From the NCBI RefSeq assembly GCF_013122565.1, contig NZ_CP053258.1: a DNA stretch of 64,000 bases. The stretch is one strand, 5' to 3'. The position numbers were made by a program, and so were the translations under genes. Positions within the stretch are counted from its first letter, which is position 1. Each line of letters begins with the position of its first letter. The DNA comes from Escherichia coli. GTDB taxonomy: Bacteria > Pseudomonadota > Gammaproteobacteria > Enterobacterales > Enterobacteriaceae. Below are positions 57,617 to 59,969 of this stretch, piece by piece. Under the pieces are notes generated by a model that was not told the DNA's origin, made no database searches, and was given only the letters and a program-made list of their open reading frames with translations.

Positions 57617-58630
57617 ATGTTTAACGGTAAAAAGATTTTAATCACTGGTGGTACTGGGTCATTTGGTAATGCAGTGTTACGTCGGTTTCTTGAGACAGAT
57701 ATTCAAGAGGTTATTATTTTCAGTAGAGATGAAAAAAAACAAGATGAGATGAGAACGCTATATCGCAATGATAAAATGAAATTTATTATAGGTGATATTA
57801 GAGATTATACATCTGTTTTAGCTGCAACTAGTGACGTTGACTATATATTCCATGCTGCGGCTTTAAAACAGGTGCCTTCATGTGAATTTTATCCATGGGA
57901 AGCAGTTAAAACGAATATAATTGGTACAGAAAATTTATTAAATGCTGCAAAACAAAATAAAGTTAAAAAAACAATTTGTTTGAGCACTGATAAAGCTGTG
58001 TATCCAATTAACGCAATGGGAATTTCGAAGGCTATGATGGAAAAAGTGATGACAGCAAAGGCTAGGACGTTCAACAATGAAGATTCAGTTGTTTGCGGAA
58101 CTCGTTATGGCAATGTTATGGCATCACGCGGCTCTGTTATCCCTCTGTTCATTCAGCAGATTCAAACAAATCAACCATTAACTATAACAGACCCTGAAAT
58201 GACTAGATTCATGATGACGTTAGATGATGCTGTAGATCTCGTATTATTTGCATTTAATAACGGGCAAAACGGTGACATTTTTGTTCAGAAAGCGCCTGCC
58301 GCGACAATTGCTGTGCTTGCTAAAGCATTAGTTGAATTGATGGGGGTGCCAAACCATCCTATTAAAGTAGTTGGTTCACGTCATGGGGAAAAGATATATG
58401 AAACCTTACTTAGCCGTGAAGAAATGGCAAAAGCGATTGATCATGGAGATTATTATCAGATTCAACCAGATAATCGTGATCTGAATTATGACAAATATTT
58501 AAGCGAAGGGAGTAAAAAAATTGAGCTGTTTGATGATTACAATTCCCATAATACATATAGACTCAATGTTGATGAAATGAAAAAATTATTGTTAAAACTC
58601 AATATCATTCAAAATGTGTTAAATAGTTAA
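57617..58630 (+). CDS. UDP-GlcNAc 4,6-dehydratase/5-epimerase, FnlA/WbjB/CapE/WbvB-like (337 aa)
   Basis: N-terminus MFNGKKILITGGTGSFGNAVLRRFL... and overall size match the short-form CapD-like dehydratases that start 2-acetamido-2,6-dideoxy-L-hexose synthesis. Confidence 0.8.
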   Translation: MFNGKKILITGGTGSFGNAVLRRFLETDIQEVIIFSRDEKKQDEMRTLYRNDKMKFIIGDIRDYTSVLAATSDVDYIFHAAALKQVPSCEFYPWEAVKTNIIGTENLLNAAKQNKVKKTICLSTDKAVYPINAMGISKAMMEKVMTAKARTFNNEDSVVCGTRYGNVMASRGSVIPLFIQQIQTNQPLTITDPEMTRFMMTLDDAVDLVLFAFNNGQNGDIFVQKAPAATIAVLAKALVELMGVPNHPIKVVGSRHGEKIYETLLSREEMAKAIDHGDYYQIQPDNRDLNYDKYLSEGSKKIELFDDYNSHNTYRLNVDEMKKLLLKLNIIQNVLNS

Positions 58631-58642
58631 GGATAATTTATA

Positions 58643-59512
58643 ATGCAAAAAATATTGATCTTAGGTGTGAGTGGTATGCTTGGGCATACCCTCTTTCGTT
58701 TTTTATCATCTCAGCAGGATCTTTTAGTAACTGGTACAGTACGCCATATTACGCAAGAAATAAAATTAGTATCATCTAAGAATATAGTCCTGATGAGAGA
58801 TGTCTTTAACAAAGAAAAATTAGAAAACATTATAAATTCGAATGATGTTATTATAAATTGCATTGGCGCAATTAAGCAGAAATATGATAATAAAAATACA
58901 GATTATATTCTGTTAAATTCGTACTTTCCACATCTTCTTAATGAAATTTGTATAGAATCTAATAAAAGGCTAATTCATTTCTCAACAGATTGTATTTTTA
59001 ACGGTGAGAAAGGAAATTATGATGATGGTAGTTTATCAAATGTTATAGATATGTATGGTAAATCTAAATATTTAGGTGAGGTTTATGGTGATAAAACACT
59101 TACTTTAAGGACATCATTAATTGGGCATGAATTAAAATCATCGTATAGTTTGATTGATTGGTTTTTGAACTCAAACTCAACTGTCAATGGTTATACAAAA
59201 GCTATTTTCAGTGGATTGCCAACCATAGAAATTGCGCATTTTTTATATGAGCATGTTTTACAATCCCAGTTGCATGGTATTTATAATTTATCAGCAGCAC
59301 CAATTTCAAAATTCGATTTATTGACTTTAGTCAATGAAGTATACAAACTTAATAAAACCATCGTTCCTAAAAGTGACTTTGTGATTGATCGTTCTCTTGA
59401 CTCTCATAGGTTGCGTTCATTAACTAAGTATACACCTCCTGACTGGAATACTCTTGTTGTAAAGATGTATTTAGATTACTTAAGTTTAGGGGCATTGCTT
59501 AATGAAAGATAA
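58643..59512 (+). CDS. RmlD-like NAD(P)H-dependent 4-reductase (WbvR/QnlA-like), 289 aa
   Basis: N-terminal Rossmann motif (ILILGVSGMLGHTL), size typical of dTDP-4-dehydrorhamnose reductase-family enzymes; immediately downstream of the FnlA-like gene. Confidence 0.7.
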   Translation: MQKILILGVSGMLGHTLFRFLSSQQDLLVTGTVRHITQEIKLVSSKNIVLMRDVFNKEKLENIINSNDVIINCIGAIKQKYDNKNTDYILLNSYFPHLLNEICIESNKRLIHFSTDCIFNGEKGNYDDGSLSNVIDMYGKSKYLGEVYGDKTLTLRTSLIGHELKSSYSLIDWFLNSNSTVNGYTKAIFSGLPTIEIAHFLYEHVLQSQLHGIYNLSAAPISKFDLLTLVNEVYKLNKTIVPKSDFVIDRSLDSHRLRSLTKYTPPDWNTLVVKMYLDYLSLGALLNER

Positions 59513-59969
59513 CTTATCTTTTTCTAAACTGATTTCTGAAGCTGAGATTAACTCCAGAAATCGTTCTCATCTTAATTTGCATGAATCTTTTTCTGATCCT
59601 ATACAGAAAACTTTGATTTGCTGTTGTTCGAACACGTATATTCCTCCTCACTATCATAAATTTGCCCATCAAAGTGAATTGTTTATTAGATTAAAAGGAT
59701 GTTTTAGTCTATTAATTTTTTCTGTTGATGGAGTGCTTACCCGTCGTATAACTATAGATGAGGAAAATCCTCTTTATGAGATAAAACCAGGTGTTATTCA
59801 TACGGTGGTAGCTTTAGACAGACATAACATTTTACTTGAAATTAAGAGGGGACCGTATGTCGAATCTGAAGCGAAAAATTTTCCTGATTGGGTAACATTA
59901 GAAAATAGCGATAATCAACTTGATTTAGAGCGATTGCGAACATTGAAGGTCGGTGATAAGTTATCATAA
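59502..59969 (+). CDS. Small cupin-like protein of the WbuC type (155 aa), function unknown
   Basis: 155-aa ORF with His-containing cupin-like motifs (PPHYHKFAHQSELF...GVIHTVVAL); small cupins of this kind accompany FnlA-type genes in O-antigen clusters. Confidence 0.55.
   Translation: MKDNLSFSKLISEAEINSRNRSHLNLHESFSDPIQKTLICCCSNTYIPPHYHKFAHQSELFIRLKGCFSLLIFSVDGVLTRRITIDEENPLYEIKPGVIHTVVALDRHNILLEIKRGPYVESEAKNFPDWVTLENSDNQLDLERLRTLKVGDKLS

Follow-up and report, generated by a model that had tools for sequence, protein, structure and literature searches.

The window analysed here is a stretch of 64,000 nucleotides of Escherichia coli DNA, near the end of which a block of genes is bounded by galF and gnd. 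The features on which the analysis bears are as follows.

49173-50078, + strand: galF, upstream boundary of the O-antigen locus (RefSeq annotation of L001, a 99%-identical locus)
51849-53012, + strand: GT4-family glycosyltransferase (NCBIfam GT4 matches, RefSeq annotation)
53854-55377, + strand: wzx, O3 O-unit flippase (RefSeq 'O3 family O-antigen flippase' on L001)
55314-56528, + strand: GT2-family glycosyltransferase, candidate L-RhaNAc transferase (co-conservation)
56525-57610, + strand: wzy, O3 O-antigen polymerase (RefSeq 'O3 family O-antigen polymerase')
57617-58630, + strand: fnlA-like gene, predicted UDP-GlcNAc 4,6-dehydratase/5-epimerase, 337 aa, start ATG (TIGR04130, PDB matches, motifs)
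58643-59512, + strand: qnlA/wbvR-like gene, predicted RmlD-fold UDP-2-acetamido-2,6-dideoxy-L-hexos-4-ulose 4-reductase, 289 aa, start ATG (PF04321/PF01370, motifs)
59502-59969, + strand: wbuC, WbuC-family metal-cupin, 155 aa, start ATG (TIGR04366)
59995-60801, + strand: GT2-family glycosyltransferase (NCBIfam GT2 matches, RefSeq annotation)
60804-61922, + strand: GT4-family glycosyltransferase, not WbuB-like (NCBIfam GT4 matches; no blastp match to WbuB)
62042-63448, + strand: gnd, downstream boundary of the O-antigen locus (RefSeq annotation of L001)

The stretch from galF to gnd shared 99.1-99.2% identity across 12,101 bp with genomes in which RefSeq annotates wzx and wzy as 'O3 family', and query coverage reached at least 80% in 16 matching genomes. 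Because of this near-identity to galF-gnd loci with 'O3 family' wzx and wzy, we assign the locus to the O-antigen cluster of E. coli serogroup O3. The three-gene set on which the original prediction was built is present in the ORF list with the same sizes and strand (337, 289 and 155 aa, + strand), and among complete E. coli genomes it occurs in 16, in each of them intact and with at least 99.3% identity. The last two genes of the set overlap by 11 nt (AATGAAAGATAA), through which wbuC is translationally coupled to the reductase gene.

The dehydratase and the reductase

In an NCBIfam scan, the 337-aa protein scored 573.9 bits against the FnlA model TIGR04130, under the equivalog cut-off of 730 bits, which explains why RefSeq gives it no more specific name than 'polysaccharide biosynthesis protein'; clusters O163, O181 and L003, which are of the qnlA type, have FnlA-like proteins with that same RefSeq name. 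It matched the solved FnlA of A. baumannii (4j2o) with an E value of 3e-160 over residues 1-332, and CapE of S. aureus (3vvb) with an E value of 7e-137 over residues 2-336. The motif TGGTGSFG lies at residue 10 and MGISK at 134-138, the latter conforming to the MxxxK pattern also present in CapE, where Met stands in place of the catalytic Tyr (PMC3699295). We consider the protein a FnlA/CapE-type extended SDR, and its presumed activity follows from the family. Its identity was 83% to the FnlA-like protein of a metagenome contig (L004), 77% to that of Limnobaculum zhutongyuii (L023) and 64-70% to the FnlA-like proteins chosen for comparison from E. coli and V. cholerae. As this distance is about equal for FnlA proteins from L-FucNAc and from L-QuiNAc clusters, a distinct 'WbvB-type' subfamily was not supported.

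The gene lying directly 3' of the fnlA-like gene encodes a 289-aa SDR of the RmlD_sub_bind/Epimerase type (PF04321/PF01370), with GVSGMLG at residue 8 (GxxGxxG) and YGKSK at 138 (YxxxK). This protein was 45-51% identical to reductases from V. cholerae (L002), E. coli (L003, O163 and O181) and L024 whose genes have an FnlA-like gene on one side and an Epimerase_2 gene on the other, and it is an orthologue of WbvR/QnlA, the reductases found in L-QuiNAc clusters. QnlA has been defined as an L-lyxo-4-ulose 4-reductase, and QnlB as a UDP-L-RhaNAc 2-epimerase (PMC5560731). Two other assignments were rejected. A true RmlD dTDP-4-dehydrorhamnose reductase would be expected to exceed the TIGR01214 cut-off of 224 bits, and the protein scored 57.7 bits; moreover, no rml-family match was obtained with NCBIfam in the nine cluster ORFs scanned and no rml gene is present in the RefSeq annotation between galF and gnd. 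A 3-epimerase/4-reductase of the FnlB/CapF type has about 370 aa instead of 289, and the protein has neither the cupin domain nor a match to NF047837.

Predicted route to UDP-L-RhaNAc

The complete 64-kb window was searched in six frames by tblastn, with the Epimerase_2 proteins of one E. coli and one V. cholerae L-QuiNAc cluster as queries, and the best E values (0.37 and 1.8) were at chance level. The NCBIfam scan gave no match to epimerase models among the other cluster ORFs. Both results bear out the claim of the original prediction that no WecB-like 2-epimerase is encoded here. Each of the L-QuiNAc-type clusters examined has its own dedicated 2-epimerase.

The closest known systems are those for UDP-L-QuiNAc, which is made in vitro by WbvB, WbvR and WbvD (PMC6765297) and in whose FnlA-QnlA-QnlB pathway UDP-L-RhaNAc is an intermediate (PMC5560731). 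In gene order and in its first two enzymes the O3 locus agrees with WbvB/WbvR/WbvD of V. cholerae O37 and with FnlA-QnlA-QnlB of E. coli and Proteus; its FnlA-like protein was 67% and its reductase 45-49% identical to the counterparts in the L-QuiNAc-type loci L002, L003, O163 and O181. It lacks the third enzyme, an Epimerase_2-type UDP-L-RhaNAc 2-epimerase, as well as a WbuB-type GT4. A likeness of function links it to Megavirus chilensis, where the 4,6-dehydratase/5-epimerase Mg534 and the NADPH-dependent 3-epimerase/4-reductase Mg535, reported as experimentally identified, lead to UDP-L-RhaNAc (PMC4691112) by the two-enzyme logic proposed here for O3. Unlike the O3 locus, the Megavirus cluster is viral, encodes a putative 2-epimerase (Mg536) and has no reported WbuC.

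In the route that we propose, the FnlA/CapE-type SDR would convert UDP-D-GlcNAc into UDP-2-acetamido-2,6-dideoxy-L-hexos-4-ulose by 4,6-dehydration and C5 epimerisation, as expected from its family. The WbvR/QnlA-type RmlD-fold reductase would then act on the L-lyxo-4-ulose, reducing it at C4 to UDP-L-RhaNAc, which has the L-manno configuration; this stereochemistry at C4 is inferred for the 289-aa protein from its orthologues and from the published structure and composition of the O3 antigen. Epimerisation at C3 may be the work of FnlA or, as reported for Mg535, of the reductase. With no QnlB/WbvD 2-epimerase in the cluster for the onward step to UDP-L-QuiNAc, the pathway would end at UDP-L-RhaNAc.

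According to a review of E. coli O antigens, L-RhaNAc is confined to that of O3, where it forms a side branch (PMC7685785). Taken with the identity of the locus and the QnlA type of the reductase, this supports the UDP-L-RhaNAc-type product that had been predicted, and the triad is very probably the part of the O3 cluster that makes L-RhaNAc, through a FnlA/CapE-type SDR followed by a QnlA-type reductase. The absence of a 2-epimerase is what would be expected of an L-RhaNAc cluster such as that of O3. The original prediction had left L-RhaNAc and 6-deoxy-L-TalNAc side by side; the first of the pair stands, and the second is unlikely because the reductase, which is 289 aa long and has neither a cupin domain nor an NF047837 match, is not of the FnlB/CapF type. 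Any product other than L-RhaNAc is highly improbable: either the reductase would have to yield UDP-L-PneNAc (L-talo) or an epimerase from another place in the genome, such as WecB of the ECA cluster, would have to lead to L-QuiNAc. wecB is indeed present elsewhere in the E. coli genome, which counts for the latter. Against both stand the QnlA type of the reductase, as opposed to FnlB, the dedicated 2-epimerases of all the L-QuiNAc-type clusters examined, and the L-RhaNAc of the published O3 antigen (PMC7685785).

The three-gene L-RhaNAc set has already been described, and our main claim adds little to it. The structure of the O3 antigen, for which Medina et al. (1994) is said to be the reference, its gene cluster, reportedly published in 2008 (Ren et al.), and enzymological work on the FnlA/WbvR route, reportedly published in 2003 (Kneidinger et al., Biochem J 371:989) and in 2014, all agree with what had been predicted from the sequence.

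An epimerase-less fnlA-qnlA-wbuC triad was also found in L. zhutongyuii (L023) and on the metagenome contig L004. One of the four glycosyltransferases of the O3 cluster would attach L-RhaNAc as the side branch. The GT2 at 55314-56528 is the only one of them with a close homologue in both L004 and L023 (61% and 50% identity), and because of this co-conservation with the epimerase-less triad we regard it as the best candidate L-RhaNAc transferase. None of the O3 glycosyltransferases is WbuB-like, as no blastp match to WbuB proteins was obtained at E<1e-3.

The WbuC protein and its genomic companions

In the NCBIfam scan, the 155-aa protein scored 132 bits against the WbuC model TIGR04366, the cut-off of which is 42. 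PF19480 (DUF6016) is precomputed for its 99%-identical cluster representative, and a direct Pfam scan of the protein itself was marginal (i-E 0.002). An AF2 model with a pLDDT of 95 has the form of a cupin barrel. In an alignment of 35 family sequences, H50, E59 and H100 were invariant and H52 was conserved in at least 90%, the HxH..E..H pattern being the predicted metal site. The protein was 31-37% identical to the WbuC proteins of O26-type (fnlA-fnlB-fnlC) cassettes. Values of dN/dS for wbuC were 0.05-0.17; like its neighbours, the gene is under strong purifying selection, which together with its intactness in 16 of 16 genomes excludes a decaying remnant.

The contexts of WbuC were sampled through 12 look-ups of encoding contigs and 11 annotated E. 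coli regions, and the counts that follow refer to this sample, as distinct from a systematic genome-wide count of co-occurrence. WbuC was present in each of the ten complete E. coli modules of fnlA plus reductase, L-FucNAc and L-QuiNAc types included, and strain MS 145-7, whose module is truncated by IS1, has it too. The gene closes the cassette, 3' of a glycosyltransferase, in most E. coli clusters. wbuC overlaps qnlA in O3 and L023 and begins 4 nt after it in L004, all three without a 2-epimerase and without WbuB. No WbuC was present in L024 or, within 6 kb, at L002, the L-QuiNAc locus of V. cholerae, where a 128-aa ORF that might have been a cryptic WbuC gave no match.

The cassette of O26 type for UDP-L-FucNAc, fnlA-fnlB-fnlC-wbuB-wbuC, has the FnlA first step and the WbuC cupin in common with O3 (PMC6712391). 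It differs in its 370-aa FnlB/CapF-type reductase with a cupin of its own, in the presence of a 2-epimerase and WbuB, and in the place of wbuC, which follows wbuB there and the reductase in O3. WbuC is thus a companion of fnlA modules generally and is not special to the epimerase-less set. Since it regularly accompanies fnlA modules equipped with a 2-epimerase, it is no stand-in for the one absent here. The original prediction had described the cupin as having no assigned role in these pathways; literature searches found no paper that assigns it one and no characterised member, and this part holds, with the correction that the protein belongs to a named family regularly found in fnlA modules with a 2-epimerase.

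The possible role of WbuC

As its most likely role, put forward with low confidence, WbuC may be an accessory metal-dependent enzyme of proton transfer, an epimerase or isomerase, acting on labile UDP-4-keto intermediates. In its definite form, in which WbuC would be a genuine enzyme of 2-acetamido-2,6-dideoxy-L-hexose biosynthesis acting on the UDP-4-keto intermediates that FnlA releases, for instance by speeding C3 epimerisation or returning off-pathway isomers, we hold this distinctly doubtful. By precedent, WbuC would not be required for the formation of UDP-L-RhaNAc.

A stronger proposal, which we consider unlikely, makes WbuC an essential enzyme, the C3-epimerase that the RmlD-type branch otherwise lacks; as a separate protein it would correspond to the Zn-cupin of CapF/FnlB and turn the L-arabino-4-ulose from FnlA into the L-lyxo-4-ulose for QnlA. 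The C-terminal Zn-cupin of CapF catalyses epimerisation ahead of reduction (PMC5393024; PMC3699295); this domain, which in the CapE/CapF/CapG system of S. aureus epimerises the product of CapE in a metal-dependent reaction (PMC5393024), could be a functional analogue of WbuC, and QnlA, with 289 aa as against about 370, has no such domain. Alignment of profiles by hhalign paired the HxH..E..H motif of WbuC with that of the CapF/FnlB cupin (E 5e-5, probability 67%), and the position of wbuC, overlapping or close behind qnlA in the three loci without a 2-epimerase and WbuB, agrees with the proposal. However, CapF was not among the top 50 Foldseek matches of WbuC, so that with a profile-profile probability of 67% a specific homology to the CapF cupin domain was not robust. 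WbuC is equally present in modules where FnlB has its own cupin (O26, O25, O15, O145 and 05-3629), and it is missing near the fnlA-qnlA-qnlB locus of V. cholerae. Furthermore, WbvB, WbvR and WbvD suffice in vitro (PMC6765297), and the RmlD-like Mg535 of Megavirus is reported to perform the C3 epimerisation itself (PMC4691112).

It is also possible, if still rather doubtful, that the function of WbuC is not directly tied to the interconversion of nucleotide sugars, the protein being for instance a general small-molecule or envelope metalloenzyme carried as a passenger in a mobile fnlA cassette. A relative in a housekeeping neighbourhood without sugar genes (L006) suggests this, as do the terminal place of wbuC after a glycosyltransferase in most E. 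coli clusters, the lack of an assigned role in the papers found, and the mcr-9-wbuC cassette, in which a member of the family adjoins mcr-9 on Buttiauxella-derived plasmids (PMC7229202). The strong purifying selection, shared with the neighbouring genes, argues against a passenger, and several rearrangements (O3, L004, L023, L020 and L005) have left wbuC beside a gene of fnlA type. Fusions point in the same direction: WbuC was found joined to an LbH domain of the sugar N-acetyltransferase type, inside a locus resembling those for UDP-diacetamido sugars, and to a Nudix domain.

The remaining value of the locus lies in WbuC, which is widespread and constrained and occurs in many clinical E. coli clusters (O26, O25, O15, O145 and others) as well as beside mcr-9. 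Because wbuC directly follows the reductase gene and is coupled to it, and because the 2-epimerase and WbuB are absent, the O3 triad offers a clean genetic and biochemical background for the function of WbuC. If WbuC were indeed a biosynthetic epimerase or isomerase, the fnlA-qnlA-wbuC triads of O3, Limnobaculum and L004 would constitute the minimal natural system for showing this activity.

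The fnlA-like, qnlA-like and wbuC genes of the O3 cluster

The ORF listing exactly reproduced the coordinates at which the original prediction had placed three genes encoding proteins of 337, 289 and 155 aa (57617-59969), inside the block bordered by galF and gnd:

49173-50078, galF, upstream border of the block
57617-58630, plus strand, fnlA-like gene (ORF1, 337 aa)
58643-59512, plus strand, qnlA-like gene (ORF2, 289 aa)
59502-59969, plus strand, wbuC (ORF3, 155 aa), starting 11 nt upstream of the ORF2 stop codon
62042-63448, gnd, downstream border of the block

The GC content of this block is low (27-39% vs. 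about 54% in the flanks). From galF towards gnd it contains, in this order, an ISAs1 transposase gene, GT4, a remnant of ISAs1, wzx, GT2, wzy, fnlA-like, qnlA-like, wbuC, GT2 and GT4. When positions 50000-62100 were compared with complete E. coli genomes by megablast, all 12.1 kb aligned at 99.1-99.2% identity with genomes whose wzx and wzy are named 'O3 family' by RefSeq. The structure of the O3 O antigen was reportedly described by Medina et al. in 1994.

ORF1 scored 574 bits against TIGR04130, and it carries only the RefSeq name 'polysaccharide biosynthesis protein' because this score lies below the NCBI equivalog cut-off of 730. It matched the solved FnlA of A. baumannii (E 3e-160) and CapE of S. 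aureus (E 7e-137), and contains TGGTGSFG together with MxxxK, a diagnostic motif in which Met replaces the Tyr of SDR proteins (PMC3699295). By family, ORF1 is predicted to be a FnlA/CapE-type UDP-GlcNAc 4,6-dehydratase/5-epimerase, equally distant from the L-FucNAc-type and qnlA-type FnlA groups (64-70% pairwise identity). As noted at 57617-58630 and loci L003, L012 and L013, the NCBI equivalog model gives the name 'fnlA' in 4 of 5 L-FucNAc-type (fnlB) clusters, and FnlA is a 'polysaccharide biosynthesis protein' in the qnlA-type clusters O3, O163, O181 and L003 (an untyped E. coli cluster) and in strain 05-3629.

ORF2, which contains GxxGxxG and YxxxK motifs, belongs to the RmlD-fold SDRs. 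A true RmlD was ruled out (57.7 bits vs. a cut-off of 224), and its 45-51% identity to the reductases encoded between FnlA-like and Epimerase_2 genes in V. cholerae (L002), E. coli O163, O181 and L003, and a further such locus (L024), identifies it as a WbvR/QnlA orthologue. ORF3 is assigned by its sequence to the WbuC-family cupins (TIGR04366, 132 bits, cut-off 42); its cluster representative, 99% identical to it, has a precomputed PF19480 (DUF6016) assignment, and a direct Pfam scan of ORF3 was marginal (i-E 0.002).

Around these genes, an ISAs1-family transposase ORF (349 aa, 50613-51662) separates galF from the first glycosyltransferase gene. An otherwise unannotated 840-bp gap between GT4 and wzx (53012-53854), two genes that stand side by side in the syntenic metagenome contig L004, contains a second ISAs1/H-repeat copy in degraded form, whose translated fragments are similar to the transposase N-terminus. 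Upstream of galF, ORFs of 426, 406 and 464 aa (45108-49010) are, by length and position, presumably wcaK, wcaL and wcaM, the end of the colanic-acid cluster, which usually adjoins the O-antigen locus in E. coli. A 347-aa ORF antisense to gnd (62387-63430, minus strand) is almost certainly a mechanical ORF within a conserved housekeeping gene, not a gene.

Absence of a 2-epimerase and the predicted product

The stated lack of a 2-epimerase was borne out: in a six-frame tblastn of the whole 64-kb window, Epimerase_2 queries taken from the L003 (E. coli) and L002 (V. cholerae) loci found no homologue (best E 0.37), and no remaining ORF of the cluster matched an epimerase model. WbvB/WbvR/WbvD form UDP-L-QuiNAc in vitro (PMC6765297), and in Megavirus chilensis Mg534 (dehydratase/5-epimerase) and Mg535 (3-epimerase/4-reductase) lead to UDP-L-RhaNAc (PMC4691112). 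Whereas the WbvB/WbvR/WbvD and fnlA-qnlA-Epimerase_2 clusters include a 2-epimerase, the O3 cluster has the same first two gene types without it; given these pathways, FnlA and QnlA in the absence of QnlB would end at UDP-L-RhaNAc.

Of the two product types originally proposed, L-RhaNAc is consistent with its occurrence, among E. coli O antigens, only in O3, as a side-branch sugar (PMC7685785). The reductase does not belong to the FnlB/CapF type, which makes 6-deoxy-L-TalNAc the less likely of the two. The L-RhaNAc inference was right, yet it is already-known biology, since publications already cover the FnlA/WbvR pathway, the O3 cluster and the structure of the O3 antigen.

Conservation, distribution and possible role of WbuC

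wbuC was intact in 16/16 O3 genomes, with dN/dS of 0.05-0.17 at informative divergences, comparable to fnlA, wbuB and the 2-epimerase gene. Among 1.84 billion representative proteins searched, 1023 relatives were found. In a 35-sequence alignment R21, H27, H50, E59, G66, H100 and G117 were invariant and H52 was at least 90% conserved, residues that correspond to a predicted classical cupin HxH..E..H metal site; AlphaFold models the protein with high confidence as a cupin barrel (pLDDT 95). Different methods disagreed on its nearest structural relatives. When its profile was compared with that of the C-terminal domain of FnlB, the metal motifs aligned (E 5e-5, with a probability of 67%), Foldseek was led by cupin phosphoglucose isomerases and thiol dioxygenases, with CapF not among the top matches, and an HMM search of the PDB returned FdtA, a sugar 3,4-ketoisomerase, and oxalate decarboxylase. 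A link to the CapF Zn-cupin, an epimerase whose substrate is the CapE product (PMC5393024), is thus no more than suggestive.

The epimerase-less O3 cluster is not alone in carrying wbuC. Outside O3, the E. coli modules examined that pair fnlA with a reductase gene (fnlB or qnlA) also contain a 2-epimerase gene, a GT4 gene (wbuB) and wbuC, both in fnlB-type (O26, O25, O15, O145, strain 05-3629) and qnlA-type cassettes (O163, O181, L003), with wbuC overlapping the GT4 gene in 7 of 9 such clusters; strain MS 145-7, whose module is truncated by IS1, has kept wbuC as well. In these cassettes wbuC follows wbuB, whereas in O3, which lacks the 2-epimerase and has no WbuB-like transferase among its glycosyltransferases, it comes straight after qnlA. 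wbuC is missing from O109, a cluster with a FnlA paralogue for L-RhaNAc3NAc (PMC9676051), and from O182, which has the same gene set.

Genomic context, like structure, gave a mixed picture. A sugar-nucleotide role is favoured by variously rearranged loci (L005, L020) in which wbuC adjoins an FnlA-type gene or module and by natural WbuC fusions to LbH acetyltransferase and Nudix domains (P0261, P0255), while an obligatory one is opposed by a WbuC relative in a housekeeping neighbourhood (L006), by wbuC beside mcr-9 (PMC7229202) and by the failure to find WbuC at the V. cholerae L-QuiNAc locus L002. WbuC is unlikely to be a stand-in for the CapF cupin, as it co-occurs with FnlB, which has its own cupin. 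With low confidence, we propose that WbuC may serve as an accessory enzyme that catalyses metal-dependent proton transfer on labile UDP-4-keto intermediates and is dispensable for product formation in vitro. The O3-type fnlA-qnlA-wbuC triad would offer a convenient place to probe its function.

L020 (GCA_001757525.1 contig, 2,711 bp) is a further variant of the fnlA module, in which a FnlA-like gene is immediately followed by an Epimerase_2 gene and then wbuC with no reductase between, on a short contig. The acetyltransferase (left-handed beta-helix) fusion (L008/L009) is part of a sugar locus, where its neighbours are a DegT aminotransferase and a GFO/MocA oxidoreductase.

Related triads and a candidate transferase

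The compact fnlA-qnlA-wbuC arrangement is not a one-off. The metagenome contig L004 (Logan ERR14048323, 10,019 bp, GC 31%) shares the gene order of the entire O3 cluster (GT4, wzx, GT2, wzy, fnlA, qnlA, wbuC, GT2, GT4), with aa identities of 40-83%, which points to a probable O3-like cluster in an organism other than E. coli. The Limnobaculum zhutongyuii chromosome (L023; CP034752.1, 3794725-3809603) has wzx, GT2, fnlA, qnlA and wbuC in this order, the last two overlapping, and a gene of the Epimerase_2 type was not found within the 14.9 kb of this locus. Because the GT2 at 55314-56528 is the sole O3 glycosyltransferase closely conserved in both L004 (61%) and L023 (50%), we infer that it is the leading L-RhaNAc transferase candidate.
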